A stretch of DNA of 64,000 bases from Marsupella aquatica. Lineage: Eukaryota; Plantae; Marchantiophyta. Below, piece by piece: positions 17,195 to 45,800 of the stretch; the stretch's first letter is position 1, and each line of letters starts with the position of its first letter. The stretch is from the NCBI GenBank assembly GCA_973895155.1, contig OZ316896.1, positions 21,699,150-21,763,149 on the forward strand, read 5' to 3'. The position numbers and the translations under genes were made by a program. Under the pieces are notes generated by a model. The model searched no databases and had not been told where the DNA came from. It worked only from the letters and a program-made list of their open reading frames with translations.

Positions 17195-18680
17195 TTGGGC
17201 TAGATAAGACTGTGCCTCTACTCTAGCATCTAGCTCTATGCTGTTCTGAGCTCTTGACAAGATCCGCAATGCCCTGCAGAGTTCCGCGTTCTTGAGGTCA
17301 AAAGGTTTGACTCCTTTAGTTGCTCGGTACGTCCAGTAATAGTAGGGTCATAGCATGGCAAATACGAAAAATGGGGACTGGGGAGACAAGAGAAGTCCAC
17401 CACATCCCCAGTTGTCAAGTGGTAGTGGTGTTGGACACTACCACTTGTCACTTGTCATTTGTTGGCTCCAAAAGGGGTCATTTTTTGCATATTTGTCGGT
17501 ATTCCTGACCGGCCCGAACTTTCCCGACCCCCTCCCGGACTCCCCCGGTTTAATGAGCCGGCCCCCCGGTTTGGGGTCGGGGCAGGGTAAGGTACGGTTG
17601 GCGTCGGGTCAAGGTTCATTGGGGGGGCCCGACAGGCCGGGGTCGGGCCGGGACAGGTCAGGGCCGGGGCTGGTCAGGGTCAGGGCGGGGTGTGGGCGGG
17701 TCAGGCCAGGCCGGGGCCGGGGCGGGGTGGGGTGTGGTCCAGCTCGGGCCGGAGCCAGGGGTTGGGGTCGGGACAACCGGGTGTTACAAATGTCATTTGT
17801 CGTGGTCCAGGCCAGGCGGGGCCGGGGCGGGGTGGGGTGTGGTCCAGCTCGGGCCGGAGCCAGGGGATGGGGTCAGGACAACCGGGTGTTACAAATGTCA
17901 TTTGTCGTGGTCCAGGCCAGGCGGGGCCGGGGCGGGGTGTGGTCCAGCTCGGGCCGGAGCCAGGGGATGGGGTCGGGACGACCGGGTGTTACAAATGTCA
18001 TTTGTCGTGGTCCAGACCCCTTATTTGCAGGACAAGTCACCCCTTATTTGCAGGACAAGTCCAACCCGGGAGCACGTCTACCAGAGAACAGGTCTTGCCT
18101 CTCAGGGCAAGATTCACACATTAATGCACCATTACTCTCCACCATAATACTGGGCAAGATTAGACTGTGCCTGCACTCTACCATTTAATTAGCTCTCTGC
18201 TGCTTCTAAGCACTTGGCAAGATTCACGATGCCCAGAGTTCCCCATTCTTGGAACCAATTAAAACTTGTGCCTCCTTATTTGCTCGGTCCAGTACTTGAA
18301 GAAGTGAGTTCATTGCATGGCATATACGAAGCATGGGGACGGGGAGGGAGAGAGAGAGAGGTGCACCGCATCTATATATTACTATTCGAGAGCAGGTCTA
18401 GCTTTGCCCTGACTTTAAGATTCACAAAGCTAGCATCACTCGATCTACACAACAGTCCGGGGCTAGATTAGACTGTGCCTCTACTATAGCATGATTTAGC
18501 TCTCTTCTGCTTCTAATAATTAAATTGTTGGCAAGATCCACAGTGGGCACGGTTCCCCGTTCTTGGGGCCAAAACTATTGATGCCTTATTAGCTCGGTAC
18601 AGCACCGGAAAGAGTGAGTTCATTGCATGGCAATACGAAGAATGGAGACTTGGGAGAGAGGGAGGGAGATGTCCACCAAT
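17195..18680. repeat. Three imperfect copies of a ~220-bp unit (about 17195-17406, 18150-18375, 18460-18680), with a MITE inserted after copy 1
   Basis: Recurring GGCTAGAT(T/A)AGACTGTGCCT...AGCTCTCTGCT...CAAGATCC...GCTCGGTAC...GCATGGCAATACGAA..ATGGGGAC. Shorter related units lie at 17030-17140. Confidence 0.75.
17407..18070. mobile_element. GC-rich MITE-like insertion (probably hAT) with ~105-bp internal tandem repeats
   Basis: Ends CCCAGTTG / CAACCCGGG. Imperfect 8-bp TSD ACCACATC (17399-17406) / AGCACGTC (18071-18078). Three copies of GGGCCGGGGCGGGGT...GTTACAAATGTCATTTGTCGTGGTCCAG. Confidence 0.6.
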
Positions 18681-19756: not shown

Positions 19757-21726
19757 CTGCTTTACGAGAAGCCTCCGCGGCCCACCCCCAGTGTATCTTC
19801 CCCTCCCTTTCAGATGACACCCACATCATTGGTCCACCTGTTGCTGTTACTTCTGCCCTCGCCACCCTTTCCACCCATTTGTTGGGCCTCGGTTTACGAG
19901 TTCAGCCGGTGAAGAGTCGTGCATGGAGTCCAGCTGGGTTACCCTCTGATCTTGCGCTTCCCCTGGGTTCTTACGTCCTACCGACGGTCTTCGGGTCCTT
20001 GGCTCCCCAGTCGGTACCGCCTCCTTTTGCTCATCTTTCATTGCTGACGCTCTCTAGGCTACCTTAGCCCCTACTCCTATGCTCCCTAAGTTAGCAGACT
20101 CTCAGGCAGCATTTGGGTTGTTGTTGAGATGCATCCACCCTCGTGCGTCCTATTTGGCTCGGACACATCCCCCTACCGAGGATCTTTATCTACACCTCCG
20201 AGCGTTTGATGTCTCCATTCGTGAGACTTTGGCCTCTCTTTTAGGGCCAGGTACTTTACTCTCATCTCCGTGGCTTCATCGACAGCTCAGTCTTCCTATT
20301 TCTCACGGTGGTTTTGGGCTTACTTCCACTGAGCGCCTTGCACCTTTGGCCTTCTTGGGCGCGTGGGCGGCCGCCTTCTCATTGTTGGCTAATCGTTTCC
20401 TTACTGAGGATCGACCTTTTTTACTTTCATCCCTCATGGTCGTCGAGGAGGGTTCCCTCCCATTTCAGGTTCATTTGCGCACGGCGCGGTCATCATTACC
20501 CGATCCTGTTCGAGCTGCGTTACCTTCATTCCAGGAGTTTTTATCCTTGGACCCCGTCCGTCTTCAGGCAGACCTTGCTGGGCGTATGCACGCTTTCACC
20601 CTTTCCAGCATCCTCACCGAGGCACCTGACACAGACCGAGCTCGGATTCTTTCTTCCGGGGGGAAAGGCGCAGGAGGCTGACTTCAGGCCAATCCAGTCA
20701 TTCCTCACCTGCGGATGTCTTCAGCGGAGTTTGCGACAGCCATGCATCTTTGTATGGGCTTGCCCCACCCACTTCTTGCTGGTTTACCTCCTACTTGCAG
20801 TTGTGGGAAGCCTTGTGATGCCACAGGTGTCCATCTTCTTCGATGCGGTTTGGGCGGCGAAACCATTTTTGTTCACGACGCTGTGAGAGATGCGACTGCT
20901 CAGGTTCTCTCTGGCTCTTTGGTCTGCGCGCGGCGGGAGGTGGTGCTCGAGTTACCTGGTCCTCCATCACAGCGGTTACGGGTGGATCTTACCATGGTCT
21001 GTGACGGTCACCGTACTTTGGCAGATGTAGTGGTGGCAAACCCATTGCGCCAAGACATCATTGGGACAGCGGCAACAACGGCAGGGGCAGCAGCATCATG
21101 AGCAGCAACAACAAAGGAGGCCAAATATGCTGCACGAGCTTCATCTGATAGCTTCTTGCCCCTTGCTCTTGAGATATTTGGGCGTCTCCATCATCAGTTC
21201 GACGGGCTTCTTCGCCAAGCTGCTCGAGATGTTCACGGCCGGATGGGTCCCACCGGGCCCCCGCTATCTATTTTGACCACGCACTTTTGCCAACGCATTT
21301 CAGTCACCTTACAGCGTGCTCAAGCTCGGGCCGTCTATCGTCGATCTCTGACAGTGGGTGCTAGTGTGACTCCGCAGCGGCTAGCCCCCCTAGAGGACAT
21401 TCCTGTCCCACTTGCCGATCTAGTTTCGACACTTGATGTAGACCACTAGCTTGTTGCCACATTTGCTAGGTATGATGAGGACCTCGGTCCATTTGCGGTA
21501 GTTTTAGTTACTCTTTCTTGGTTTTTAGGGGTTTCTTTTTGCTCACTTCTTTTAGTTCCTCTTTCTTGGTTTTTAGGGTTTCCTTTTGCTCACTTCTTTT
21601 GCGTTTGGTTTTGTCCACTTGGGACCTCTCTTGTTTATTCTTTTGTACTCTATTTGGCCTTTTTCTGTATAAAGTATGTGTATATATATATATATATATT
21701 TTTTATTTTATTTTTTATTTTATTTT
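19757..21726 (+). mobile_element. 5'-truncated non-LTR retrotransposon of the RLE type (CRE-like), decayed
   Basis: RT C-terminal motifs (FPSLSDDTHIIGP, GLRVQPVKS, GLRVLGSPVG), QLSLPISHGGFGL, Zn-knuckle CSCG...HLLRC...HDAVRD and RLE motifs RVDL...DVVV...KEAKY...PLALEIFG. In-frame TGA stops at 20679 and 21099. (TA)n/(TTTTA)n tail. Candidate TSD TAGTCTTA at 19749-19756 and 21727-21734. Confidence 0.88.
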
Positions 21727-22183
21727 TAGTCTTAACCATTGATGTTTGTTGATCAATGATGAGAGTTGTGCAATGTGGGTTGATGCACAATAATGTCGCT
21801 TGTGTAAAAATTGTCATGTGTGCGAGAATGGAAGTGCGCAAGAATAGTAATGTGTGTGAGAAGTATAACGCATGTAAGATCTATGCTAGTTGTCACTCAA
21901 AAACTGGGAAAGAATAATTATTAAATATGGGCCAGTAGTGTGGGTCAACTAAGTTGAAGCCAAAATCAACATGGATCTCTCATAAAAAATCATTTTTGTT
22001 TTACTCAACCAAATGGGCTGAACATTCTCTAAGGGATAGAGAGGAAAGTTGGGGAATCTAGTATTAAAGTTGGAGCTCAAACTTAGCTCCAAATTGTGAG
22101 TTAAAAAATATATTGATTTGAAAATTTTGTCTTAATCCAATCTCATCAGTCTATTCATTAAAACTGGAAAATTATTTGATCTT

Positions 22184-22310
22184 TGGACATTTGGGCACCA
22201 AAATATATACTTTTGGGTACAAGAATTATACATTTGGGCAGTGAAAGTTGTATATTTGGGCACAAGATCATGTACATTTGGGGAATCAAGATTGTATATA
22301 GGGGAAAATG
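22184..22310 (+). repeat. Left subterminal ~22-bp repeats of the transposon
   Basis: About 5-6 units of (T)ACATTTGGGCACAAGAATT-like sequence. Similar units in the same orientation lie at 35396-35458. Confidence 0.7.
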
Positions 22311-22871
22311 AAATATTAATTTGGATTCTAAAGAAAAACATTTGGGTGATAATAATGTAAAATATGTTGGATAAGAAGTAGAAAATTGATTCAATCTGAC
22401 TAACTAGTAAGTAAGTAATATAATATAACTAAAGCTAACTTCAATATGATCTCGACCCTAGCTATTGTAAACCTTCTACGTAATAAATGAAAGTATTAAT
22501 TTATAAACTTGTCAGAATGGTATCTATCCATATTAATTCAAGTAACTAACTAATTTGTTAGTACATTCTACAGTAAGCAACTCGAGTTGAAACTAAGGTT
22601 TACTAGAGGCAGTCACATCCCATCACGGATATGACTTCTTGTAATATAGTCAGATAGTATATTATGTAATTATAATTAAAGCAATTAATATAAAGGTATC
22701 CAAGTCCAATTAATACCTCCTGCCCACCTATTCAAACTAGTCTCCCAAAATATTATAAAAGTTACTTAGATTCACTAGTAACCAACTAGCTAGTACGTAA
22801 ACTAAGACATTCCAAACCAATTGACATACTTAGACTCCCTCACTCTGACTACTAGAAAACTTTAATTTGAC

Positions 22872-25800
22872 TTAATGAACAATCCCTTCCATGTAGGTTT
22901 TGAGTGTTTTCAAAACACTCTTGGGAATGGTCAAACCTCTATCAATTATATTTTCTTCTCTAGAGCGTGACTTGAATCCATACATAGCAGAATTAGCAAA
23001 TTGCCAACGTTCAGTGGCACTGTCAAACCCAGGATCCATCTCCCAAGTCTTAGTGGTCTGAAAGCAACGTGAATATCGCACATGATCCGGTGCATCATGT
23101 TTACCATGTTTAGGCCTCCACCATTGCACTTGGAACATAGGAGCATACCTTGTACTAGTAGAAATACTATTATTGCATTGCAAGTCTCCTGAAGGAACTT
23201 CATGGTTTGGGTCCACAACACCCAAAGCTCTCACCAACCAGAAAAGTTCCTTGCCATTCTTCTTTTCCCATTCATCCTCTGGACGAAGAAATACAAAGTG
23301 TCCCTCTTCAATGTCCTGGAGAGGAATCCAACGGGCAAGTTTTCGCTCGTGTCGAGTGCCAACAAATGGTGCAGTTTGATCCTCCATCTCTTCCAGGTAA
23401 TCATTCTGAAGCTCCACCATTTCTGGATTTTGTGTACTACTACTAGGTTCCCCCAATGGTTCAGAGGTTCCTATACTATTCACCTTGTAACCAGTTCCGT
23501 GGTTGGTTTTTGGCCAAAACTCATATGTCAATGCCAACTGTACTTCGGCCTCCCCTTCAATTGTAAGCTCCCCAGATAATACTTGCACCACCATTTCCCA
23601 ATATTTCACCAAAGGAAACCTCTCACGATATGCTGTAGAGGTCTCATCCTTACAACTCTTCTTCAAAAACTCGATGTAACGATTAAGGAATGGGATGATT
23701 TCTTCAACCTTGCCTCGTACATCCCCGGAGATGGGTTTTGCAAACGGTTGACCTTCTGGTAAAATGAGAGCATTGGTGTTGGAATCAGTTCTCCAAATGG
23801 ACCTTCCGGTTGGAGGATACCAAGGTTGTTTCACATGTGCTTTGTATTGATATACTGGAACATTATCTCTCATAGAGAAAAGAAATGCCACTGGTTTTGA
23901 GTGACCCTCTATGTCTTTTACCTTGAATGTTTTCAAAAACTCTTTGTAAGCTGCAACCTCTTGAATCAACCGTGGAACAGGATGAATGCTTTCACACTCC
24001 CAAACCTCAGCCATCAACCCCAAGAGGGTAGAAACCTCCTTGTACTTCACTTGGTTGGATACTTTTGAAAACAATGCATCGACATCCTCATGGGTGTGAC
24101 CAACCATGAGAAATGACATCTGCACTGTTTCAAAGACCCCTCTACTAACAAGCTCACTGCAAAATGCCATCACGTATTGGTTTTTGTTATCTTTCCATGA
24201 ATTATCCATTTGCAAGGTCAGGTGCCTTGGCAATGGTTTGAAAGAGGTAGCAGCCTTGGGATCAATACCAAACTCGTCATCCACCACATTTGATAACCCA
24301 ATATCTTGGTCATCTTCAACTCCTTGAAATCTAGCAATTGAGACTTTTTTGGGTTCTAAGTACCCTGCAAGAAATGCTTCAAAGTCCAAAAGAGATTGAA
24401 AAATTGGCCTCGTTGCAGCCCAATATAACCCTTCAAGGAGGTCTCCAGATTTGTCCCCCTTGTAATCCTCCAGATCTCTAAGGCACTTGGCCAACGATGT
24501 CACTGTGAAGTCTGCATCTCCCGGCCAAAGCTCAGTGAAACTGAAGTGAGCATACACTCCGGGATCCCTTCCGTGGGTCAACATCCCAGTGAGCGCAATG
24601 GGGAGAGGTTGACCACTGCCAGACAATGATTTAGGAGTGGGGACCAACCTAGGGATCCATGTCTTGGCTTGGTCCATCTTGTCATGTATAATGCCAAAGA
24701 TAGTTCTCAGGATCCTTCTTCGCAAGAACCCTGTGAGCATAGTAAACATATCTCCTAGACATTTGCTCACGAAGATGACGAGCTCTTCTTTCCTCAATCT
24801 CTAAACGCTCTTTCTTTCTCTTCTCACGCATCAACTGATCTTTGAACTCAGTGCAAAGTATACACTTTGCAAATGCACTACCCTTGTGAAAGTCAAAATT
24901 CATGAAGGACTCACTCCAGAGTTTATACATAGTGTTTTCACTCACCTTCACGTAGCCATCTAATTCCATCTTGGAGTACACCTCCTCAAAAATCTCTTTC
25001 TTTGTGAAACAAGATGGAAGTCTATACTCAACCGTGTTAGTACCATGAGACCCTCCATAGGGTAGATGCGGCATGGGTTCTCCGTTTTGGGTTAGAATGG
25101 ACTCCAACAAAGCACGAGCGTGCAAGGTGCTTCCCCGTGTCTTGTGTGAACCCTTGTTTCCATGGAATTCAACCTTGCAACCTGCTTCGTATTGATTTTT
25201 GTAATCATAATACTTGGCAGTGCTGAATCCATGCATTTTAATAAATGCACCCTTGCATACAAGTCGACCTCTTACAACAAAATATCCTTTTGTCTCCACT
25301 TCCTTCTCCCTGCAACCAAAAAGAGTGAAAATGTGACTGGTTTTGTTGTCGCTTGACATCCCATGGTATTCCCTCCTTATCGCCTGTAGGTCTTCTCTCG
25401 GCATGTTGAGGCAACACTTCAACTTACAACAACCTTCTCTTTGGATGGAATCAATTTCCTCTTCTGTGATTTTCAGAATTGCCCTTGACTCCAGGTGCTT
25501 CTTCCTTTTTTCATCAGGGTTCCCCTTCGTTCTCTTGATGAAATTATAAGGCCGTTTTGAAAACTCAGTATGACCATTCATATCTACCTCTAGACGATCT
25601 CGACCATCAATAATTGGCTCGGGAGAAACCTCTCCAATGAGATCCAGAAGAAAAATCCCCCTTGATATCAGCACAAGTGAACGGATGGCCCACCTAACAA
25701 GACCGGGCACTCCGGGGGAGATATTCGGGAAAAATTGAGGGTCAATCACGCCTGTGACAACAACCCCAACGTGATCTGGCCCAAGAACCTCATCATCAAT

Positions 25801-26591
25801 GGCACCGGACTCGAAAGGAACTGTGATGATGCCAAGCCCGACCTTGGTCCGATTATCATCAACATACAATTCCACTTCCTCCGCCATCCAGTTCGAACGC
25901 AAACTATAATCTTTGAAATTATAATTTCCAAAAACATCCCGTGCGGACGGCTCATCTAGTAAATCATGTGAAGAACATTCCTTAAATTCCAGATTACAAA
26001 ACTGTCCAATCCTTCCTGAACGGTAACGGCTCCAGCGTGCGGAAAGGGTAACCTCTCCATTCCTTGAACAACTTCACATATCTTCACACTAATCCTATCA
26101 GGGCCAAGTCTTTCATTGTGACAAGTCTCATCGGGATTCGTCTTGAATACAAATCCTCGACACACAATCTGATTTCCAATCGAGAGCTCCACTTCATCGC
26201 CATCTGTAATTGAGTCTCCCAAACTTCCCACCACAGATTTGTCAGGTAAGCAATTGGGAAATGAATCATTTGTAGAACATGTAGCATCCACTTGTGTCAT
26301 CGCTGGAGTTGATTGTGACCTCAAATATGCGAAAGAGGCATCCCAAATAATGCAGGAGTCTACAACATCAAAAAGTGTTCTGATCGGTGGCAACGGGAAT
26401 GGAATTTCTCGAGATCCATAATAGCACCTCTCAATAAGAACTCCTATACGATTAATACCCAAATCAACGTTACGCACTGAGTCACCGGGGTCAACCTTAA
26501 GGACTGTTCTAGAGGCAACTTCAACTCCGTCAAGTAAGAGGGAAACCTCGTCTCCTCGAAAGAATATCCCCATTTGGAAAAGATGTTCCAA
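22872..26591 (-). pseudogene. Sola/DUF7869-like DDD transposase (~1240 codons) with three N-terminal Tnp1/En/Spm-like domains; two frameshifts; start not resolved
   Basis: Core motifs IIHDKMDQAK, LTLQMDNSWKDNKNQYV and FLMVGHTHEDVDALFS. Cys-rich CCKLKCC / VCKGAF..HG / FAKCILC. Three track ORFs join through frameshifts near 25970 (NVLH to HDLLDEPSARDV) and near 24697 (ENYL to IIHDK). Confidence 0.85.
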
Positions 26592-26667
26592 ACAGGAAGC
26601 TGTTGTACCTCGAGATGATCTCGAGGTAAAGTGACTAGCAAAAACAAACCAACAGAACTAGCAGTAA

Positions 26668-26903
26668 CAGATTAAGAAGTCTTTAGCTCGAGACAATCTC
26701 GAGGTAAAGAATGGACCACAAAAACCATGAGATATAGATTAACAAAGTCTTCAGCTCGAGATGATCTCGAGGTAAAGAATGGACCACAAAAACCACGAGA
26801 TATAGATTAACAAAGTCTTCAGCTCGACACGATCTCGAGGTAAAGAATGGACCACAAAAACCACGAGATATAGATTAACAAAAGTTTTCAGCTCGAGACA
26901 ATC
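26668..26903. repeat. 68-bp tandem repeat (~3.5 units), each unit containing the element palindrome
   Basis: CTCGAGA-type starts at 26687, 26755, 26823 and 26892 within GAGGTAAAGAATGGACCACAAAAACCA.GAGATATAGATTAACAAAGTCTTCAG units. Confidence 0.9.
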
Positions 26904-27349
26904 CACATGAAGAGGGAATTCAATACTTCCCACGATCAATAATCCACCCTAGAAGAAGAACTATGAAGTGCATAGAAACAACAGCTCATAATAACTCCTC
27001 AGAGAAGCATGAACTCACGCAAGAGAAGGAAAGATACTTAAATACTTGTGGATTTAAAGGAGCTAGAAACAAAAATAGACAATTCCCAGGAAGATACCTA
27101 AAGCTCGAGACGATCTCGAGCCACAAATGACACTCTAATTGAAAAATATGTTGGAATGAATGAGGAGCTCTAGATGATCTAGAGGTAAAAGTTTGACATT
27201 GAAATACATAAAGTAGGCTTACAGAAGACTAATGAGAAATGAGAAATAGCTTCAAAAAAAAAAAAAAAGGTTCACAAATGGATTCTGAGTGGCAATGTTT
27301 TAAGCATAAATGGTTTGGTATTCTAAAAGGTATGGGTTCAATTATTTTA

Positions 27350-28052
27350 GACCAACTTCATGGCTTCAAATGAGAATGTCTCCAAAACCAAATAAACAAC
27401 TGAGAGAGAAAGGGATTCGAGAATAAATCTAGAGCCAGAGAACAGGGAGCGAGAGGTAGGGGCAGGAAGAGGGATAAGAGAGAGAATGAGGGGAGCAGGA
27501 AGCGAGCAATGAAACGATATCTGAAGAATGACCCGGTGGGGAGGAAAAACGAGCAATATATAAAATCCTACCTGACCAGACGGCTCTGTCAAACCAATGG
27601 CAGGGATGAACTAGCGGCAGGGTGAAGTACGGACCGCAATAATGACGGTACGTGTGACAGCACCGTCATCATGACTCAACTCAAGATTCACTCCCACGCA
27701 TGGGCGCGTGGCATCCTGCACGTGGCCGGGCATCAGTCGCCGGGCACCCCAGCCTGACTTAGGGCCGACTGAGCGGCTTATAGTCCACATTCGTAATGTC
27801 GCCACCCTCATTTGCACATTCGCCTCCCTGCCTACCTCCCCTCCGCGCCTCACTCGCCTCTTGCTTACTGCCTCTAGATATTTCGTCGCTTTTGCCTCTA
27901 GATCATTATTTTTCCCTCGAGACTTGTTTAGGGTCAAGATCCCCTTTGAGCCTCGAGATATTTTATAGCCGTTTGGATCGGGATTTTCCTGTGAGCCTTG
28001 AGACAATATTTTTCTTATATCACCCAGATCTAGTATCCAGTATCCAGTAGCC
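27350..28052. promoter_or_regulatory. Putative bidirectional promoter region between the transposase (leftward) and cargo (rightward) genes
   Basis: GC-richer non-coding core at 27600-27860. TATA-like ATATATAAAAT near 27557. Purine/pyrimidine skew flips across the region. Divergent ORFs lie on either side. Confidence 0.4.
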
Positions 28053-31000
28053 ATGTCGATCGTTGTAGATTTCTCCAAGGACGACTTCGCCGAGTACGAC
28101 ACATCAACTGTAGCGATGGAGCTTCAGACCCTTCTAGATTCATCGCAGAACATCCACCGCACTATCAAACGTAATATATTATCTTTTCTCATTGTTAGAT
28201 GGAGGTTTGGCTCGAGATCATCTCAAGCTTCAAATCATACTTGGTTTTTGATCCACTTGAGGGTCGAGATCATCTCAAGCCGATTGATATTTTCTACATT
28301 ACTTTGCTTCAAGAGGTGGCTTCGAAGTGAACAAGTTTATCGTTTGTAACTGAGATTAGGCTCGAGATCGTCTCGAGCCTAATATCCATAAAGTTAAGAG
28401 GTTTCTGTCATTTTCATATTGATGTATCTGTCAGATTGTTGTATTTGTCATGCTGTATCTGTCAAATACTAACAGCATATCCAAAAGGGATTATGGAAAA
28501 GGCAGATTTAGATTCCTATTGAATATGTTGTTCGTATTTGACGGATGTTTTATTATTTCCGATGGAAAACAATATCCTTCAGAAACCAACATCATATCGA
28601 AAGTCGTCCAAGCTTGCTTCTGAAAACGACTTCTGTACTCTCCAACTTGTTCTGATCATGGAAATCATCCTGAGTTAGAGAGTTTTTGAAGCCTTTTCTA
28701 GAGGTAAAATTGGACAACTTTTGAGTATGTTGTTCGTATTTGATCGATCATATTTGAGAATCAATGTCTTCAGTGAAGAAACATGATAATGCAAAGATTT
28801 AGTTAACGGTGAACGAATGCCAACTATGAGTCTCTGTATTCTAACTTTTAGAGACTTGGGTCGAGATCATCTCGACCCAAGTATTAAAATATCCAATTCA
28901 TCAACAATATACTAACTTTTTGCCTTGTCAGATTTTTTGCGTATGGAAGACCACGTCTGTCGAAAACCAACATCCTATCAAAAGTCGACCAAGCTTGCTT
29001 CTGTCAACGACTTTTGTACTCTCCAACTCGTTCTGATCATGGAAATCATCCCGAGTTAGAGAGTTTTTGAAGCCGGTGTTAGACGTAAGCTTGGTCAACC
29101 TTTGAGTATGATGTTCGTATTCGATGGAGATTCTCATAATTGAGAATCGATGTTTTCCTATGACGAAATATGATAATGCAGAGATTTAGATAACGTTGAC
29201 TGTTTAGCCATGATTGACTCTTCCTGTATTCTATTTCTAAAGTATTGTTCATGAATTTAGGGTCGAGATCATCTCGAGCTTCCATTGTATTCCATGGCTA
29301 CTTGCCATCTGTAGATTGCAAAATACCCTCCAACTCGTTTCCATTGATGATTGGGGTTCGAAAAGGTGATTGGTAGTTGGGTTTATGATATTTTAGAATC
29401 AATTCCTCCCCCCAAATACATCTAGCCATGAAACAACAGTTTTGTACTTATTTGAGTTCAACTATGTTAATGGGTGAGGGAAGCTCGAGATCGTCTCGAG
29501 CCTCTTACCGGATTTCTCATTTCTGTGATTCTGACAATTGGTCTATTTTTCATTTTTTCCAGGTGCAAAATTGGGATCGCCCAATTTGATTGTTGAAGAT
29601 GAACATGCCCTTGAGGTTTTGTGCCCTGGACAAACTGATATAGGATTCTGTTGGGCCATTGAGCTAGCTGAAATTGAGGAGATGGAGGGGTCAGTTATTT
29701 GTTTGAAGACGCGGTCTCCATCTACCGAACCTCTAGTTTGCAGCTTACTTGGGCCTGTTGTTTCCATTGTCACAAGTAATGGTAAGGAGATGATCTTGAC
29801 GGTGGAGAACCATGAGACTGGGAAATGGGCTCTCATTAGGCTTCACTCCAAGAACTACTCGTGCGATCTTAATATTGAACGTGCTGCTAGGAAACAACTG
29901 AGCGTGATACCAATGGGATTCTTCCCTGATGGATTTACTGCCAGTAATTTGTTGGAAGAGTCCAAAATGACTGGGGCAGATATAATTTTTGGATTCTTGT
30001 ATTGCCGGAAATACGGTTTTGATCATGACAATGAATTCACGACTCCTTTCACTTGGAAGGTTTTGAGAATAATGTCAGATTCCAAGGTGGGAGAGTTTCA
30101 ATCCATTTCCCCTGATTTTGTTTTTGGAGCTGGTGAATTTGACGAGGAAGGGTGCAAGAAGTGGGTGTTGTCTCATCGGAGACAAACAGGTAAAGGGAAA
30201 TCAGGAGCTGCAGGAGATAAGATGTCAGGCTCGGACAAGAAGAAGGTAAAGGTGGCGCAAAAGAGGAAAAGGGTTGAGAAACCTGAAAGCGGTTCGAAGA
30301 AGGCTCCGCCTAAGAAAAAGTCTGCTCCTGTAAAGGTAGATCTCATTCCGGCATCTTCTTCGGGTGTGATTGCACATACCGATGATGATGGCACTCCAGG
30401 AGATGCTCCGGGTGAAAAGAGCGTTAAAGAAGGAGCCGAAGTTCTTAAGGAGATTGAGGAGTATTACACATTTGGCATGAATGAAACTTTTGACATTCCT
30501 GTCACTAGTATAAATTCACCCTCTGCAGTTTTGGTATATAGGATGTTCAATAAGGACCATGCCATGGAGATTGCAAAATCCATGGTTAGAAACCCTGGAA
30601 TGGTACCAGCTGTGGCGGATTTAATTCCGTATTCAAGAGAGAGTTCGCAGTTGCTCCATTATGATAATACTCCTGAGGATCGAAAGGAGTTCGAGTGGGG
30701 TGTTAAGAATAAGAAGGTGCAATTCCTTGCAATTAGTGGACAACACTCGGCCAAGGCAGTAGTTTGGATCATTGGTTGGTCTAAGAGCGATGCAAAGTTG
30801 AAGGAGGTCGCCAAGAGTCTTCAGCTTCGAAAGTCACGAATTCTTTCGGACAAAACTCCAAGAACAATACTTGCTCAACACTCACAAAGGGCAAATGCAG
30901 TTAACAAGACGATGGAGTATGAGTCCTATTTTCTTGATACTATGGTCCATGCCCGTCGACAGTTTGACGAGTGTGGCCGTCCCGAGAGACCCGTGATTGG

Positions 31001-33500
31001 GTCCAATAGACTAACGGATCATCAAAAGTTCCAGGTATATTCGAACTCAAATCCACTTCTAGCTTGAGATTGTCTCGAGCCTCGAGGTCAAGTTTTTGTA
31101 TTCAAGTCTTTTTCAATAAATTTCAACATAGTTTCTTCTACCTCTAGATCGTCTCGAGCCTCAGTTTTTCATTGTTATCTTTGGATCAGGATTTCATGGC
31201 TTTGGCCAAAATAACGACTGGAAAATCCGACCTGAGGAATATTTTTTGGTTGTTGTTTTTGGAAGAGAAACTGTTCCAGTCTTGGAGACTAATGTGCATC
31301 GATTGGGTCAAGGGGCTGATGGACTTGGTGAGTTAGGTTCAAAAACGAATGGGAAAAGCCGGACAACCAAAATGATTACACCGGCATTGTTTAGATGCTT
31401 TGAAGGGGACCTCAGTAGTGAGGACATTCTAAAGGTGTTCACCGCCGTTCATCATCAGAAGGTTCTATTGAAGAAAGACCCGACGAACAAATCTGATGTT
31501 CAATCAATGAGTGACATGGCCCATATGTTTAAAGTCATGACAAAGCTAAAGGCAAAAATTGTGGAGTACTATGTTTTAAAGTATCCCGAACATTTTTCCG
31601 ATTCACTTACTTGGTTTGAGCTAACTCAATTTTTGCCAACATTTTTAGATCACGGTGAATTGCCGAAACTGAGACAGCTCGCTAGTGAGGTTTGGCTGTC
31701 CAATCTCCTAAAGAGAAATAGGGCCAAAGAACCATTTCCGCAAAGTCTCATTGTGAGCTTGAGCAGATATACTACAAGACGTTTGGTGGGACTCCTGCTA
31801 TGGTGGATACTCCTTATCGCAGTTTTTTAAGCGATAATCTTATGAGGACGATGAAGCCGGAATCAGTTGGACCCTTTCATAATACGTGCGCACTTGCCGT
31901 TGTCGACTTTGGTCGTATTCGACAACGTCAATGGACAGATGCTGAGATTTTTGTCTTGTTGGAATATTGTCTGGAGATGTCTAACTCAACCGAGTTTTTG
32001 GAAATCATTTTTGTTCGTCAAGGCCCTTTAATAGGCCAGATTCAGAGTGCCTTCGAGAAGTTCCGTCGTGAGAAGAAAGTCCACACTAAGCTCGAGTACG
32101 GTAGTTACTACCGTGAAGATGTACCCAAGGAGGAAGGTGACTTTCTCATAGGAGCACGGGACACTATCATTTTTGGGGGAGTTTGTTGTGACGAAGAGCC
32201 TGACTGGTCCCAAATTTTCTTCGACGATTTTTATGCGTTCTGGAATTACAGTGCTAAGTACGACAAAGACTTCACCGTCTTACCGATGAGGTCTTCCGCT
32301 GGGAAACGCAAGGATCAACAAAGAGGGAAAGAGAAGCAGGATGAAGTTGGAGTTGATGTCGAAGTATTGGAGAAGATGGCCCCGTCTTATGAGATGGTCG
32401 GTAGGAGAGGGGGCTTTGTAAACCCCAGAGCTAAACCTATACGAATGACAAAGCGTCTTGTTGATTATTTCTCCAGCACTAGTCACACAGTGCTTGACTT
32501 CTTCTCCAAAGGGCAGACCCTCAAAGCTTGCGTCATTGTTGGTCGGGATTGTTTTGTTTATTCTGACACAGCTCAAGAGATGGAATTCATCGAAGCTTAT
32601 GCGCGGCTCCTCCATGACAACCGCCATGTTTTATATATTCCACCCCCAGAGTCGTTGCCATCTGAGGCCATTGAAGCCAGTCCCCTTACTGTTTTGGAAG
32701 AAGTGGCCTCGGATCCAGCTCCAGTTGAGGCGAGTGTTACCGAGGAAGTTTTTGCGGAGAATTTGGAGCATCGCAAAACAGAGGGCCCCAAAATCCCAAG
32801 CTACATGGAAGAGGAGGGTGAAATATTGCCCGAATTTAATGAGGTAAATGATGGTCGAGATGATCTCGAGCTTCCTGGTGTACCTTCTTCGGTGGACGCG
32901 TTTCATGTAGAGGATGCACAACATGAGCAGCAGTCTTCAAACTTGGATGTTGGTTGGGAAACCACCTTGCAGGACGCTGCCAGCCACCCAATTCCTAGCC
33001 CACCTTGACTCGATGAGATCCTTTCAACCAAGAAAGCTTGTTGCTCCCCTGCCACAACTCCCCCTCAGGACGAGGCAGGTGCATCGTCCTCTCCCTTGGA
33101 CCAAATGTTTTGCGCTTCAGAGGATAAGCTTGTTTTCACATATTCTTCTACTGGAAGCCCCGTAATTCTCCCTTTTGTTAGGAAACCTGGTGTTGAAATC
33201 GGTAGAACTGGCTACAAATCTCTCAAAGCTAATGCTACTCATTATGTGTGGATTCATGGTCCATCAAAAGGAGAACAAGTCAATGTAGATCAGGCTGAGA
33301 AGATTATGCGTTCCAGGGATTATAGGAAAAATAAGTTTAAATTAGTGCCAGTTTGGTCTGAGCCAGCTCTTGTTGAAACGCTTCCTGGAGGGATCAATTT
33401 GGACATCCAAAACCAATTAGGAGATAACCTTCTAGATGAATTTGGGTCTTTCAGCAAGTGACGTTGAAACCCAAGCTACCTTCAGTCCTCAAATTCAGCC
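28053..33500 (+). pseudogene. Transposon cargo gene: basic NLS-like segment + ParB/Srx(DGQHR)-like domain + degenerate beta-class N4/N6 DNA-methyltransferase-like domain; spliced, several lesions
   Basis: Probable ATG at 28053, large exon 29563-31034, GT..AG intron 31035-31189. ParB-like FDIPV...VYRMFNKDHAMEIAKSM...FLAISGQHSAKA (30483-30760). MTase-like NPRAKPIRMTKRLVDYFSSTSHTVLDFFSKGQTLKACVIVGRDCFVYS (32421-32565). Frameshifts near 31320 and 31750, in-frame TGA at 33006. Confidence 0.6.
28560..29280. repeat. Internal direct duplication of ~0.3-0.4 kb, each copy ending in the palindrome
   Basis: AAGTCG(T/A)CCAAGCTTGCTTCTG...GGAAATCATCC(T/C)GAGTTAGAGAGTTTTTGAAGCC at about 28600 and about 28982. 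Confidence 0.85.
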
Positions 33501-33726
33501 ATCTAAATTATTATGTCTACCTTCACAGAGATAGGCGGGCCATTACCAGTTGTGGATTGCGTCGACAATAGTCTCCGAAGCTTTCCACATTCTTTGACAT
33601 CTGCCCTTCAGCCAATTGCAGGTTTGTCGCGCACTGTTGTTCATTTACTTTTCATGCTCGAGATCATCTCTAGCCTACCTTTATTCTGTCTCACACAATT
33701 CTAATATAGGTGTCTCTTGTTTGCAG

Positions 33727-34783
33727 GACCCTTGCCTCCACTTCACGGTCCAATCAGACGGAAGCTATTGATTCTTGACCTCAACAAAATGTGTTGGGAT
33801 TCTGTTAGAACTCCGAGTCCTGGACCGCGCCGAAGTGCCACAAGTGTCAAGGCTGTTCATTGGGGGAGACGTGGAGGATTTAACTTTATGTATGTTGAGG
33901 GTCCCCATCTTCACGAGTTCTTAATCGCAGCTTTTGCTATATTTGATGTTGCCATCTGGACTTGTGCAAGAAAGCCTAGGGCAAATGAAATGATTCATTT
34001 GATCTTCACTCAAGAAGAGCAGGAGCAATTCAAGTTTATTCTGACGCAAGAAGATACATTTGACATTGGAATCCAGAGGCCTGACGTCACCGAAGGAAAG
34101 GCAAATATTCTTTTGAAGGATTTGAGGGTTGTTTGGAAACGTTATGGTTTATTATACGATGAGACTAATACACTCCTCCTTGATGACTCTCCAATGAAGG
34201 CGTTTGCAAATCCAGAGAATTGTGGATTGTTCCCTTCTTCATTTTCGCATCACTCCACGGATGATACTTTCTTTCCCGAAATACTGTGGCCTCTGCTGAG
34301 GAAATTGTATCATGCCTTCAATCTTCAACACTACCTATTTATCAATCAACCAAAGTGGTCTATGATCAATGTTTTATCGGATAGGGATCAACAGGTTGCC
34401 ATTTATGCTCTGTTGTCGGAGAGGTGGGGTAGTATGGTATGGGTTCCCAATGTTATCCATACAGTCTTGGATGTTACAGCGGACGAAATTCCCTGGGATA
34501 TCAAGAATGAAGTGCAACAATTGCCACCAATTGAGGAATTGACGGAGGAGGCGATCGAGGACCTTATAAGGATATTAATTGGGGATCAGTATACAGGACC
34601 CTATAGAGACAATCATCTGGCATTTGTTTAGGAAGTTCTGAGGACTAGAGACCTCACGACTAAGTTTTGGAATAGAAATCCTCTGGATTTCTGCAATCGC
34701 GATATGAAATATGACCCGTCAGGGTCTAGATTTAATTGCTCAAATGAATTTTGCGAGGAGGAGGATCATGAGATTTGGGTCTA
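33727..34783 (+). pseudogene. FCP1/SCP/NIF-like HAD phosphatase domain carried by the transposon (separate gene or last exon of the cargo gene)
   Basis: RKLLILDLN...PHLHEFL..AFAIFDVAIWTCA...LKDLRVVW...YDETNTLLLDDSPMKAFANPEN. Acceptor TTTGCAG ends at 33726. The TAG at 34629 looks premature because the frame stays open to about 34783. Confidence 0.8.
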
Positions 34784-35547
34784 GATGATCTCGACCCTAC
34801 ACCAAACACTGATTATTAGTTAGGGGTATATGTTTGCAGGAAAGCGTGAAGCTTACCGTAACATCCATTTGGGTCTAAATGTTCTCGACCCTCTACTGAA
34901 GAAATAGGGTTTTACTTATAGATATATACTCATAAAAAGGTTAGTCTATTCGGGGCTTAACCCTGTACAGAAAGAATAGTAAGTTAAAGATATACATTCA
35001 ACAACGGGTCAGAATTATGTGAACCCTCCATTTGGGTCGAGATGGTCACCATATAGATTTTTACAGATATGCATTCAACAACCGGTCAGAACCATCTGGA
35101 CCCTACATAGGGGTCAACGTGATCTCGACCCTGTAAAAATAGGTTTTATAATTTTATAATACATCACTTGTTTTCCTGGAGTTCCGTGTTCATGACCCTT
35201 GGTTAGAGTGTGTCATTTTTAATGTTATCATTTGAATTTATTGTATTGTCAAACTAATATTCTAATATTGTCTTATTCTGTATTTTTATCTGTTTATATT
35301 TATAATTAATAATATTTATAATTAATAATATTTATAATTAATAACTTAGTTATTTAATAATTTGAGCATTACAATTGTAAATTTAGACTTTAAAAAGTGT
35401 ACATTTGGCCACGAAAATGTATGATTTTGGGGACAAAGTTATAGAATTTTGGGGTGTAAAATAATAGATTTAAACGTCAACTTTTGGACTAGAGAAATTC
35501 CAGTTTTAATGAATAGGGTGATTCTCAGTTACGATAAGCCTACTTAG

Positions 35548-35745
35548 GGATGTGTGCACCTTAATATCTTAACTCATAACCTTATCAATTTCAAAGTTAT
35601 AATTGGGGTCAAACAGTACACCAACCCTTGCGGATGTGTGCACCAGAATGCCTTAACTTGTAACCTTATTAAGTTTAAAAGGTATAATTGGGTCAAAAAG
35701 TACACCAACCTTCCGGATGTGGGCACCAAGATGCCTTAACTTGTG
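35548..35745. repeat. ~84-bp tandem repeat, ~2.4 units
   Basis: GGATGTG(T/G)GCACC...CTTAACT...GTACACCAACC recurs at about 35548, 35632 and 35715. Confidence 0.75.
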
Positions 35746-37740
35746 ATCTTCTTCATTTTTAATGTAAAGACAATGTTATGTTAAGAGTAGTATCAAATGT
35801 TGATCTTGCTTTTGCTATTTCTATTGGAAAAGGAATTTCAAAAGGAAATAACTCTCAATCTAAAGTCTTCTTATGCCTGTCTTTGTAGCAAAGTTCCTTA
35901 GATAGAGTATCAATATTTACATCTTTTCAGTTGTCAAGATTTGAAAAAGTATTTACAAGTAAATATGAAACTCCAATTTTCAGGTCAAACAGTTCACTAA
36001 GTTTAGATCTGATGTTGCAAATTAGAACTTAAAATTCACTTTCTTTTATCTAGAAATAATTATTACAAATCAATTGACTAAGGTGAAATCTTGGAATTGA
36101 ACAAATGTTTGAAATCTAGGGTTATCACAACAAATATTAGCAATCACACTTCTGGACCATAAGGAGAGAAGAGAGGCAAACCTGTATTTCAAGTGTTGTC
36201 AAAAAGTTGAGCTTGTTATTGATTATAAAATAATTCGTAAATTCTCCCAAGTTTGTCTGGCAACCAAGAGTAAAATGTTCATCTCAAGAAAGGGTGAAGA
36301 GGGGGGCTCAACCATTGAATTGAAAGGACATTGGGCCACTTCACAACTAATAAAATCCTTACAAACTGTAATTATTCAACAAAACATGCAATGCTACAAA
36401 CCTACCTGGGTCACATGATGAGAGCCATACAAAAAATACTTTGCCACTTGATGTCCGCCTCCAAGCTTGAATGTCTCCTGTAAACAATACTCCCACCTAG
36501 CCTGAAGTATGCATTAAACCCCACTATGATCACCCTAGGCACACCAAAAGAGTCATGAGTTCAACCTCCAATCAGCCTCCACAAGCACAACAAATTAGTC
36601 CCTGAATATTGAACACAACATCACTAAATCTCCTATCCAACCTATTTTTGTTCAGTTTATTAGTTACAATCTCTACATAATGGAGAAAGCTACATTTAAT
36701 AATAAGACAAAATAACATCATAAAGTACAATTGATTACATAATCCACATCATGCAAGAAAACAAGTGTTCATAGTCCCATCAAAGTTGGTCTATATGACC
36801 TCTCTCTCCAACACCTATGATGATTCTACACTTATGGTTTTTGTCTTTGTTTCCATTTGTCATGATCATTAGGAAATTGATGCAAATTTTGTTTTATTAG
36901 CATTTATTAACAAATTGAATCTTCAAACTAAGTACGTTGCTCAAGATAATATCATAGATATTTACAATTAGTGATTCAATCCAAGCCGTCATTTTTCTTG
37001 TCGCATCCTCTTATTATTATAGATGAGCTTTAGATGTCATTCTTACCAAAATTAAATTTTATGCACATGAATTTAAAACGACAGATTTATAACGCTCCTT
37101 TCAATGCACTTTGGCAATCTGATCTAGCCTACATATATAGAACACTCCTTTGAATGCACTTTGACAATGTGATCTAGCCCATACACAACACTCTATTGAA
37201 TGCACAGTCCACACAAAAAAGAATTGAGCTGGACCCACATACTAGTTTTGTCTCCCACAGCTGGGTGTGGCAATGGATGCGGCTCAGCTATAATCTTCCT
37301 CTGACTAATTAAGTGCTCATTAATATTGCAGATCGATGTATATTCATTTTATGTACAGAAGTGCATAAACTTTGCCTACGCACTTATTTGTGTTTACTGC
37401 ATTTATTGGATAGTGTATCCTGTGATAGTACACTAAATTTACTGGATAGTGCATACAGTTGGCTCTTGTTAACTGCACAATCCTGGGCAAAGCATCCAAT
37501 GTGCACCTAAAGTGTGTTTGCATGACATGATAAGTGCAAACCCATAGAATTATGCGCACATTGATTGGTAAGGGACTATGCTTCCAGTGAACAGTCTCCT
37601 GACTCACAACCCAAATTGTACACCCCTCCCCAAAATTTGGTGTCCTAATCCATAAGTTTATTTTTTAATTTACTCTTTTTTCTAAAGGGCATGCGCTCTA
37701 TCAGAGAAAGGAATGTGAAGCTGTTAATATGATGAATGCA

Positions 37741-42833: not shown

Positions 42834-45800
42834 ATGGCGACGCAAGACACCGCGGAAGTCTGGAATTTGGAGAATACGCCAACATGGGCTGTGGGCAGTG
42901 TGTGCGCGATTTTCGTCTCCATTTCCTTGATCTTCGTACTTGCAATTGAGAAGCTTGAGCATGTAAGTAAAATCTTCCTCGTGGTACACGCCTGACCTTC
43001 ATATAATCTGCTTTCTATTATTGAGTCTCGATTTAATTGCAGGGCTTGCACTTTCGTATTAAATTAAGAATCTGGACATGAATCGAAAGAAAACTAGCCC
43101 AAGTTGTAGGCGTGGTCTTGATTTGGTTTGCGTAGCTGGATGAGAAGCCGGCTTGCCTAATTGTCTTTCCTTTATAGAGAGAGGATGGGTCGGGATGCTC
43201 TTACTGGGCGGACAAGCGGAGCTTTAGGGCGACAGTGTGCAGGTGGCTCGAATATTGGCATGTGTAGATAAATCCTGTGGGACTGACCCAATAGATAGTT
43301 TTGTCGCCCAAATAATTCTCACAATCCATTTCAAACCCTTCCACCATATTTAATTTCGTTGGTCTGCGATTGAGGTCAACAGAAACAAACTCCTGTTGTT
43401 ACAGAGTCTAAAAGGTCATGTCTTTAGAGTATGAATCCGTAATTCCTGTGTGGGGCTCACAAGAACTATTATTGAGATTGGGTTCTTTCTCCTGTGGATT
43501 TGCAGTATCTCAAACACAAGAACCGCAAACCACTCGTGCAGGCACTTGACAAACTGAAAGAAGGTAAGCCTCTGTTCCAATCTTCCCTTTCTTTCTGGTT
43601 GGCAGATTGAGCGTGCTCTGTCTTTCGTTGTAGGACTAGTAGGACCGGGTAACCCTTTCAAGAGGTGTCGAAGTTTGCATTAGGTTCTCTTTTATGTTGA
43701 AATGATGCTCAGTGAATGTTTCCTTCCCGGGGCAAAAGTCATGTTAATCACTTGTGACTTCAAATCCGAAGAAAAATTCTGCACACTTTTTATACGGTTT
43801 TAACTTCAGAGCGTTAATGTATTCAAACAATAGCCTTACAGCTATCGCTGGATACGAATGATGACATGAGCCATTTGTTTCCGTTTGGTTTGCAGAATTA
43901 TTGCTACTGGGATTCATATCTCTCCTGCTCGCGGTGTTTCAAAATTACGTCGCAAGTATATGCGTCAAAACTAGTTTATTGGAGGATTGGCGTCCCTGCA
44001 AACTCCAGACGAAAGGGGCTTCGGGAGGATCAGAAAATGTTACCGAAGGGAAGCGAAGACTGTTGGCAACTGATTCGTGGCCGATGATTGATTGGCGCGA
44101 CGAGCCACTTTTCCATGGCCGGATCCTCGGTCAAAGTGCTCCCAAAGCTTGCCATGCTGTATGTACATGAAATTCTCAGGCAGATTTTAGACGACCAAAT
44201 TCGTTGTTTTCACATTAATTTATCACCTTCAACTTCAGCCGGCGTCTGGGTATATGCATGCGTGTGCTGAAGCACACGATCTTTCTCCCTTATCAGCGAT
44301 CTGCCTGATTTTCGAGCACTCTGCTTGGGCAGCATGACCTGTTCAATGATGAACAATGATGAACACGAGGTCTGTCCGATTCCCACGGATCTGACTGACG
44401 ATTTTGAGTGTTTCCTACCAAATCTTTCCGACCAAATCTTTCCGAGGGCAGATATTGAAAATCCGAACTTTTGTTGCAGGGAGCTACCGCGTTAGTATCG
44501 GTTGAGACCTTGGCACAGCTGCACACATTCATCTTTGTCCTGGCTGGCGTGCACGTAATCTACAGTTTGTTTGCAATGCTGCTGGCCTCCACCAAGGTGA
44601 ACAGGTGGAGAGTGTGGGAAGAGGAGGCACATCAGGACACCAACGATACCTTGGGCGAAGCTGTGAGGTCACTGTCGATGCACCGGCAAACAACGTTCAT
44701 CAAGTACCACACTTCCAAGCCTCTTACCACGAACCGGTTCTTTGGCTGGTTGATTTGCTTCTTCCGACAATTCGGCAAGTCGGTTGTGCGCTCAGATTAC
44801 CTTGCTCTCCGCCTCGGATTCATCGGAAGTCACAACACGGGTCAAAGTTTCGATTTTCATAGCTATATTATCCGATCCCTTGAAGATGAATACCAGGACG
44901 TGGTAGGGATCAGGTAACCAGCTTCACCCCTTCGCACTTGTCTCATTTATTTTCTTCAATTTGATAGGTAATTCTACAACTCAAACATATGATGAAAGGA
45001 TCCTTGATTTTAACGTTCTGCCATCGTTTTGTTGTGCTGCCAGTCCCTCCCTCTGGTTATTCGTGATCCTCTTCATGCTCATCAATGCTGCCGGAACAAA
45101 CCTCTTCTTCTGGCTTTCTTTGATCCCTGGAGTGGTATGCCCTTTACTCCTTAGTTTTCGATCTTCTCCTCAAAATATATAGATCACCAACTTGCAATCA
45201 AGATAGCCAAGATGTAGAAGAAAATGAAGCAAATAGAAATTAAGTGCGAGGCAAATCAAACTTGAGGCATTCATTCAAAACAGTAAGTCATTCAAAACAG
45301 TACATTCATTCAAGACAGTACATTCAAACATAGTTTATTCATCCTGTTTAGACCAAACCCAAGTTAGGAAAATGGGCTGTAGTTCTGTTGGATTGAGATG
45401 TTGATGCCGTTCACTTTGTTGTACTTGAAGCTAGTTCTGTTGGTGGGAGCTAAGCTACAGCACGTTATAGCGACTTTGGCGTGGGAGAGCGCAGGACTCA
45501 ATCCGAATGGCGTGTACTCTGGACCGACAGTAAAGCCGCGAGATGATCTATTCTGGTTCAAAAGACCTACGCTGATTCTCTATTTGATCCACTACATCTT
45601 TTTCCAGAATGCGTTCGACATGGCAACTTTCATCTCATACGTGGTGAGTGTTTTTTCGCTGATCACGTAGAATTCTTGATGACATCGCCGGAAGAATTGG
45701 GAAGTGATCCTTCTTCTCCTTTGATCTCGCAGTGGCAATTCGGTTTGAATTCGTGCCTTCTGAGCAACAAAGGCTATGTGTATGCTCGCCTTGCGATCGG

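Follow-up and report, generated by a model that had tools for sequence, protein, structure and literature searches.

The closest described counterparts of the locus reported here come from algae. In the brown alga Ectocarpus, the 21.5-kb Sola1 transposon Sola1-1_Ec32 has a 4-bp target site duplication (TSD) and carries, on the strand opposite to the transposase, a gene for a 1104-amino-acid protein with ParB and N4-cytosine/N6-adenine methyltransferase (N4C/N6A-MTase) domains; its best protein match is given as Sola1-1_PPa, and the authors, pointing also to examples in green and red algae, suggest that proteins of this kind bind the element that encodes them and modify it (PMC12477816). In the red alga Bostrychia, a ParB-domain gene of Plavaka lies beside inverted-repeat arrays, and self-binding has been proposed there as well (bioRxiv 10.1101/2025.02.11.637652). 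ParB-linked adenine MTases in chlorophytes and chytrids have been reviewed (PMC4738411), and Marchantia has an active host methyltransferase, MpDN4MT1 (bioRxiv 10.1101/2021.02.12.428880). Published systems are compared here as described in the passages on record of these papers, in which self-binding by the algal ParB-fold accessory proteins is a proposal and not a demonstration. In this study we describe a Sola-like element in a 64-kb window of the liverwort Marsupella aquatica (contig OZ316896.1, positions 21,699,150 to 21,763,149 of the forward strand; the window is this whole stretch of 64,000 nucleotides, and coordinates are counted from its first letter). The element is real, well bounded, recently spread and locally broken. 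It carries a transposase gene on the minus strand, a cargo on the plus strand with ParB-like, MTase-like and phosphatase parts, and a set of palindromic sites. We tentatively propose, as a reading that falls somewhat short of probable, that this passenger binds the palindromes of its own element and counters silencing non-catalytically.

The element resembles Sola1-1_Ec32 in being a giant Sola-type transposon with a 4-bp TSD and a ParB and MTase accessory gene opposite the transposase, and in the idea of self-binding. It differs in its host and in its terminal inverted repeats (TIRs), which are 282 bp long in the brown alga and 25 bp long here, as far as a comparison by description goes. The main text of PMC12477816 does not contain the string "palindrom", its passages on record mention no phosphatase, and the Ectocarpus MTase is predicted to write a methyl mark, whereas the Marsupella cargo lacks the catalytic motif. 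Plavaka (EnSpm) with PAG2/PAG3, from Bostrychia as well as further red algae, shares with the Marsupella element its giant size, an N6-MTase accessory gene and an accessory gene of ParB type, for which arrays of inverted repeats are the proposed sites. However, Plavaka belongs to another transposase superfamily, its ParB is fused to a 2-oxoglutarate oxygenase and its MTase to SET, and its tandem arrays lie beside PAG3, whereas the sites described here are dispersed through introns and untranslated regions (UTRs). VANDAL21 of Arabidopsis, with its protein VANC21, is similar in combining an element-encoded accessory protein with a short, dense, co-oriented, non-coding and family-specific motif, but it is Mutator-like, its 9-bp motif is non-palindromic and its function has been demonstrated, so that the present element stands to it as an analogy (PMC5735166). 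No match to the VANC Pfam family was found at E ≤0.1 among 10 open reading frames (ORFs); a dense, family-specific non-coding motif is present, at the scope of the window.

A full-text literature search, with subscription papers and Repbase Reports mostly outside its scope, turned up no description of this arrangement from a land plant. Across 1007 plant genomes, a published survey assigns only 9 of 3203 active clusters to Ginger and Sola under an element length limit of 12 kb (PMC12973397), so that a 13.4-kb element would be missed. The first-pass annotation of this DNA, made from the letters alone, had called the combination unknown from plant transposons; this holds for land plants in the literature searched, but not more broadly, since algal ParB/MTase precedents are published. 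The core idea of a giant transposon with a ParB-type self-binding cargo is already in print, in algae, and what is new is the host group (as far as the searches show), the lost catalytic motifs, the phosphatase and the dispersed, polarised sites.

A bounded Sola-like element and its family

The element spans 22145-35522 (13,378 bp). Its TIRs, found by inverted-repeat search, lie at 22145-22169 on the plus strand and 35498-35522 on the minus strand and are complementary at 23 of 25 positions, with two mismatches. On the plus strand it is flanked by the TSD TCTC at 22141-22144 and 35523-35526, both supported by the flank sequence and by the joint of the empty site. In the empty-site contigs, 22140 is joined to 35523 and 13,382 nt are skipped, which equals the 13,378 bp of the element plus the 4 bp of one TSD copy. 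Such contigs were found in two of the four public runs (three in X2 and one in X3, none in X1 or X5). Because the flanks are repetitive, the empty form may represent a paralogous site or an allele; the ends are fixed either way. Both the TSD and the TIRs agree with the traits of Sola elements, which have a DDD transposase, a 4-bp TSD and TIRs of 11-1124 bp and are present in Physcomitrella (PMC10741241). Inside the TIRs lie 22-bp subterminal repeats, in tandem at 22187-22296 on the left, where they are candidate transposase sites, and at 35423-35471 on the right, where they were found by tandem-repeat search. The element is embedded in other repetitive DNA: many contigs cover each of its flanks (21600-22144 and 35523-37000), of which the right one opens with an 84-bp tandem repeat.

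It is also evident that the element belongs to a family. At a likeness of at least 93%, the region 32800-34900 is matched by 163, 61, 669 and 158 contigs in the four runs, across identity bands; read depth was left out as a measure of copy number. The copy in the window carries frameshifts in the transposase and in the cargo, and other copies, in contigs of the runs, are free of those frameshifts. The window thus contains a broken representative of a 13.4-kb, multi-copy cut-and-paste transposon, and intact copies would supply proteins in trans to broken ones like this.

The transposase gene (22872-26573, minus strand) consists of three ORF pieces, at 26657-25956, 26073-24682 and 24800-22872, and matches Pfam DUF7869 with E 6e-46. 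The frameshift near 24694 is missing from other copies in all four runs, and the reading frame also changes near 25960-26000. Motifs bearing Asp are found at 24692-24669, 24215-24180 and 24101-24069, with a CxxC at 24864, and the three Asp-bearing motifs are candidates for the Sola DDD triad. The transposase is accordingly called Sola-like here. At the N-terminal end of the gene are three tandem β-rich repeats of about 80 amino acids (about 25650-26570, minus strand; pairwise E 6e-12 and 1e-5), which gave no family in Pfam, the ESM Atlas (best 0.88) or the PDB (0 matches). They may resemble the small β-barrel domain of En/Spm TnpA-like proteins, a likeness that no tool confirmed. A metagenome scan with the transposase yielded one decayed relative, in effect one locus in two contigs (L121 and L122). 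In L121 this relative (8321-10545) is interrupted by a separate inverted-repeat element with arms at 9119-9432 and 11514-11827, and the DNA of the contig is AT-rich and plant-like. In sum, the first-pass description of a bounded 13,378-bp element with 25-bp TIRs, a TCTC TSD and a leftward, Sola-like transposase is confirmed by the DUF7869 match on the minus strand and by empty-site contigs in two of the four runs.

The cargo: predicted folds, lost motifs and conservation

The cargo is read to the right. Its putative first coding exon (28054-28171, plus strand) was recognised as an ORF. An internal duplication follows in the 5′ region at 28553-29128, with two 195-nt copies 381 bp apart and 84% identical; each copy has exon-like borders, and the two share a stop in the likeliest frame. 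A large exon (29563-31034, plus strand) encodes an N-terminal domain common to relatives, a Lys-rich linker and a domain of predicted ParB/Srx fold (30405-31034, plus strand, with SGQHS at 30732-30749). The next interval, 31035-31189 (plus strand), is a GT-AG intron with two palindromes, and several relatives' predicted ORFs lose similarity at this same point. Downstream are a helix-turn-helix (HTH)-like and helical middle part (31190-31755, plus strand) and a β-class amino-MTase-like domain followed by an acidic linker and a TGA (31757-33008, plus strand). The helical part has two frameshifts, near 31314-31317 and at 31756, both of which are absent from other copies, and the TGA at 33006-33008 is common to at least one close contig (X2 record 12). 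A 150-codon frame (33009-33461, plus strand) with no family match, which may belong to the gene before it or to the one after it, and a NIF/FCP1-like HAD phosphatase gene (33513-34631, plus strand) complete the cargo. With the shared TGA, the ParB-MTase part, this frame and the phosphatase may make up one protein or two.

The ParB likeness came through a fold search with a predicted model. Pfam gave no ParB match for this part, and PDB sequence searches with the ParB ORF or its profile gave low-complexity or chance rows only. The domain has 210 residues and 81 homologs at E ≤0.001, with G112, Q113, H114 and N164 near-invariant, and its AlphaFold model reaches a predicted local distance difference test (pLDDT) score of 92. 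Noc, PadC, ParB and Srx head the Foldseek rows for this model (best E 1.9e-3), and the top eight VIA-align rows are all of ParB/Srx fold, with Z 4.7-7.8 and a ninth row at 3.1. Two fold searches of the predicted model thus place it with the ParB/Srx N-terminal fold. Bacterial ParB, Noc and KorB (PDB 7ol9, 7nfu, 6ryk and 8qa8) also have a ParB/Srx fold followed by a helical module, and the parS, NBS and OB sites are likewise multiple, palindromic, of similar length and on the same replicon. Compared with bacterial ParB, the Marsupella cargo has GQHS in place of GxxR, large insertions, an MTase-like fusion and no ParA, and it is an intron-containing eukaryotic gene.

Homologs of the cargo occur in at least two liverwort genera, with a close partial homolog in Calypogeia fissa; R1sor_008738, R1sor_000947 and CAM6105388 are further examples from Riccia sorocarpa and Calypogeia fissa. 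In Riccia sorocarpa, the protein R1sor_004962 (1010 aa) has the ParB, helical and MTase-like parts in the same order and unbroken. Its model places three confident helices (residues 284-327) behind the ParB fold, and with the full-length model the columns aligned to Noc and ParB in Foldseek grow from about 165-186 to about 275-297, at E 1.7e-4. The helices and the longer alignments suggest a ParB-type HTH. The alignment behind this model included one window piece in the wrong frame; the model is poor in the MTase part, where the VIA rows for residues 511-629 are generic α/β folds. A tree of 55 ParB-like domains from 94 hit lines, made after pieces of fewer than 140 residues and near-duplicate cluster members were dropped, puts the window domain into a supported group with six members (95/81), among them a Calypogeia fissa protein, and the Riccia proteins into three groups apart from it; the phylogeny of a transposon can differ from that of its host. 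Riccia has at least three divergent clades of ParB-like cargo, annotated as hypothetical host genes (R1sor_004950, R1sor_008624 and R1sor_004962), and two of these gene numbers are close together on one chromosome-size contig. A tblastn search of the Riccia homolog against phages gave no match. When metagenomes were scanned with the ParB alignment, 76 stretches matched and none was confirmed.

The MTase-like part matches PHROG 3008 (E 3e-6), N6_N4_Mtase clusters of the ESM Atlas (0.91, with 170-173 shared features) and M.RsrI (E 0.006), all of these matches running through the motif I region alone; the Pfam N6_N4_Mtase match, at E 0.005, is under the Pfam cut-off. Word-index protein searches with the MTase ORF at two length settings returned nothing, which is a weak negative as homologs do exist. 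As in the β-class amino-MTases (M.RsrI, PF01555), the order is permuted, with motif I (32487-32513) near the C-terminus and a cargo H/N-P-x-x-K-P stretch before it that aligns to M.RsrI. A permuted Rossmann fold is predicted, with the sequence match confined to the motif I region and the model of low confidence. The β-class N4C/N6A MTases have [DNS]PP[YF] as their catalytic motif IV. By contrast, the Marsupella cargo lacks the catalytic PPY and stays below the Pfam cut-off: no [DNS]PP[YFW] was found in the four cargo ORFs or in any homolog collected, and the strand aligned with motif IV (31893-31916) ends in DFGR here and in DLTA or DLIA in Riccia. Since neither the window copy nor the Riccia homologs have the catalytic motif, enzymatic marking of the element's own DNA is unlikely; judged by its motifs, the MTase-like part is most likely not a methyl writer.

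The phosphatase gene has an exon at 33513-33621, a palindrome-bearing intron and an exon from 33727. It matches Pfam NIF with E 9e-16 and 58.3 bits, above the curated cut-off of 21.8, and falls below the NCBIfam cut-offs for three HAD-III models. The canonical motif I of HAD phosphatases is DxDx(T/V). Here the corresponding stretch at 33771-33791 reads DLNKM, in which the nucleophile Asp is kept and the second Asp is replaced, so that the canonical pattern is lost; WT, K and DDS motifs are present. The frame continues beyond the TAG at 34629-34631, where a short stretch with Cys and His (34632-34770) is possibly a zinc finger behind a premature stop.

Among the cargo differences listed, 32 of 55 are synonymous, where about 26% would be expected (p 6e-7), counted over the best-supported rows (the best 40 of 2,141 and the best 40 of 42). 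By part, the synonymous share is 6 of 8 in the helical part, 11 of 18 in the 150-codon frame, 12 of 17 in the phosphatase, 1 of 3 in the ParB exon and 0 of 3 in the MTase ORF. By these counts the 150-codon frame is under purifying selection. The cargo is a family trait under purifying selection, carried by many diverged copies. The proposals made for the cargo in the first-pass annotation fared differently. Contigs in all four runs show that other genomic copies carry it; profile and fold searches returned the ParB and MTase similarity, the former as a predicted fold and the latter as a likeness; and the phosphatase proved sound at the level of the NIF family. The suggestion that the cargo methylates or marks its own DNA was not sustained.

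Palindromic sites and the surroundings of the element

The palindrome CTCGAGA-N3-TCTCGAG has 17 matches with up to two mismatches in the window, all 17 inside the element, whereas shuffled sequences gave a mean of 0.15 and a maximum of 1. This restriction was checked against the other 50.6 kb of the window, and "element-specific" holds at that scope. A weight matrix trained on 18 sites, all among the final 19, placed its top 23 positions within the element; the training sites score 26-37.5 bits and are followed by 18.0, 13.7, 7.3, 6.1 and 5.4 bits, with 3.5 bits for the best position in the window outside the element. Two weaker sites from the matrix added to the 17 matches give 19 good sites (25588-34889), with the core (C/G)TCGAGA-N3-TCTCGA(G/C) and a consensus that extends to about 21-25 bp. 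The sites start at 25588, 26609, 26687, 26755, 26823, 27104, 27168, 28211, 28263, 28361, 28860, 29262, 29484, 31063, 31142, 32854, 33657, 34779 and 34873. Within the window, the early impression of some 20 palindromes confined to the element has thus held up. The exact palindrome also occurs in viral contigs, in at least 120 stretches, with a single site in each of the 80 listed, and these matches were set aside as chance.

Under the working gene model, in which 35% of the element is non-coding, 17 of the 19 sites are non-coding (p 1e-6), and both introns that can be defined in the element contain palindromes. Twelve of the 19 fall in the interval that separates the transposase ORF's start from the large cargo exon (26609-29484), and the weight-matrix scan found no strong site in the left terminal 3.4 kb. 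The core positions are near-invariant across sites, and symmetry is frequently broken; CG is kept in 28 of 38 half-sites, and GATC is present in 16 of 19 sites. A 68-bp tandem repeat of 3.5 copies (26669-26903) has a full or half palindrome per unit, so that three of the sites derive from one array. The 22-bp repeats at the ends of the element differ from the palindromes and would be the more natural transposase sites. On the plus strand, GTAAA, which is splice-donor-like and antisense to the transposase, follows 5 of the 7 transposase-side palindromes (26609-27184). An Rfam scan of 13.7 kb gave no hits.

The spacer of the palindrome is polarised. Read toward the direction of transcription of the nearer gene, it is T[CT][AG] in 16 of 19 sites (p 0.004), and in 14 of 17 after the tandem array is collapsed (p 0.013). 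The polarity flips between the sites at 27168 and 28211, that is, across the intergenic region between the divergent genes (27185-28053), a putative bidirectional promoter. A symmetric dimer site does not need such polarity, which might stem from spread by local duplication or from a function in RNA.

Outside the element, the region to its left (20058-21600) is a very high-copy, degenerate ORF region with no Pfam match, which may resemble the stretch downstream of a reverse transcriptase of a long interspersed nuclear element. Host genes in the window are of the MLO family and for the plastid ATP synthase delta subunit (44459-46653 and 49484-50350). At 5340-5780, 8860-10005 and 17570-18015 there are G-rich arrays of 10-11 bp, pyrimidine-rich arrays of 18/35 bp and a 105-bp tandem repeat, which are possibly subterminal repeats of other transposons. 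An ORF of 258 codons at 61698-62474 is Pro-rich and coiled-coil, resembling a retrotransposon accessory ORF, with all Pfam rows sub-threshold.

Possible roles of the cargo and its sites

If the cargo binds its own palindromes and counters silencing, two HTH-like modules would probably read the two half-sites. Given binding, the effect would more plausibly be anti-silencing, as for VANC or TnpA, than repression. The cargo would keep the two divergent genes of the element transcribable against host methylation without writing a methyl mark; the dead MTase fold would serve as an extra DNA-binding or S-adenosylmethionine-binding module, and the phosphatase might, by a weak extension of the known role of the NIF family, aid transcription through a substrate like the C-terminal domain (CTD) of RNA polymerase II. 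Binding and counter-silencing gain support from the same self-binding idea proposed for the algal ParB cargo, and from the VANC21 motifs, which are likewise dense, co-oriented and non-coding in their own element (PMC5735166). They are also favoured by the bounded, multi-copy element, by the conserved cargo with its homologs and predicted ParB fold, and by the element-restricted, mostly non-coding sites with their largely retained CG. A more elaborate form, in which a land-plant transposon lineage has converted a bacterial ParB-MTase fusion into a dead, sequence-specific loader that binds parS-like palindromes, spreads over the 13-kb element and overrides host silencing with an element-encoded CTD-type phosphatase, as a ParB/parS module on eukaryotic chromatin with a palindrome particular to each family, is unlikely to be right in all its parts.

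Several observations weigh against binding and counter-silencing. No Foldseek match to ParB reaches E 0.001 for the window's own domain, Z below 8 can reflect a common arrangement only, and the HTH is a prediction from the helices and longer alignments of the Riccia model. The Box II GxxR arginine, which ParB CTPases have, is missing: the stretch reads G-Q-H-S, and Arg is found in 0 of 46 aligned members (S in 42, T in 3 and L in 1). This arginine is required for nucleotide binding in the tested ParB-fold proteins (PMC12704722), and its absence makes a canonical CTP clamp doubtful, even though other conserved arginines (query positions 46, 142 and 184) might substitute for it. The synonymous counts come from best-supported rows, and all three differences listed for the MTase ORF are non-synonymous. 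Two of the five sites that were folded are perfect palindromes with 13-bp arms that differ in sequence from each other, and co-variation between arms is slight (positions matched in 168 of 228 cases, against 156.7 in shuffles; p 0.019), a pattern that a hairpin or self-conversion would also give. Furthermore, the present evidence does not separate activation from repression, and binding itself is a prediction.

The cargo might instead bind the palindromes as a KorB-like repressor or an architectural protein, lowering the activity of the divergent promoters or condensing the long element to bring its ends together for transposition. As a ParB-family clamp, KorB silences promoters at distances of up to 1.5 kb from its site (PMC11790492), it is the second VIA row for the ParB domain (Z 7.6), and the 12 sites around the divergent gene starts would suit such a protein. 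However, the lost Box II arginine makes sliding doubtful, pairing of the ends would want sites near them, where the left terminal part has no strong ones, and the CpG observed/expected ratio of 0.64-0.68 across the window suggests that the host methylates repeats, which favours counter-silencing; we consider repression or compaction rather unlikely. A similarly doubtful alternative is that the palindromes are not sites of the cargo at all, and are bound by the transposase through its N-terminal repeats, act as hairpins in the RNA of introns and UTRs, or arose neutrally by local duplication and hairpin self-conversion. Activation of cognate copies can also come from transposases and TnpA-like proteins (bioRxiv 10.64898/2026.08.24.746577), and the polarity of the spacer, the two perfect hairpins and the three sites from one array are in keeping with this possibility. 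Against it, the other three folded sites are no better than shuffles, the core is near-invariant although symmetry is often broken, the ends have their own, different 22-bp repeats, and red algae again combine a ParB-fold cargo and inverted repeats, there next to a transposase of unrelated type (bioRxiv 10.1101/2025.02.11.637652).

An active N4-cytosine or N6-adenine MTase, guided by ParB and marking its own element, would fit the MTase-like matches, the GATC in most sites and the Ectocarpus precedent, whose authors propose the same (PMC12477816). It is nevertheless very improbable, as the cargo ORFs and collected homologs have no [DNS]PP[YFW], the motif IV strand ends in other residues both here and in Riccia, and motif I (DFFSKG) is shortened relative to M.RsrI. 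The idea that the cargo was acquired just once, by capture or nesting, and does nothing for the element deserves hardly any credence. It could draw on the decayed metagenome relative, in which no cargo match and no palindrome array were found within 10 kb on each side, but that relative is fragmentary and 48% identical at best. Moreover, each of the runs has many diverged copies that cover the cargo, the cargo is under purifying selection, its homologs extend beyond one liverwort genus, and the repeat search of the window showed no inner TIR or TSD around it. One-off capture is largely refuted for this element family.

The element offers a defined test pair, namely a variant-rich protein family and a sharp candidate site of 17-25 bp, in a plant group with a transformable model among its members. 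A dead MTase half in this lineage would make DNA binding, and no longer self-methylation, the explanation to pursue. If binding and counter-silencing are true, a protein with no relation to VANC would here serve transposon counter-silencing, and a pair similar to ParB/parS would be at work in a plant nucleus.

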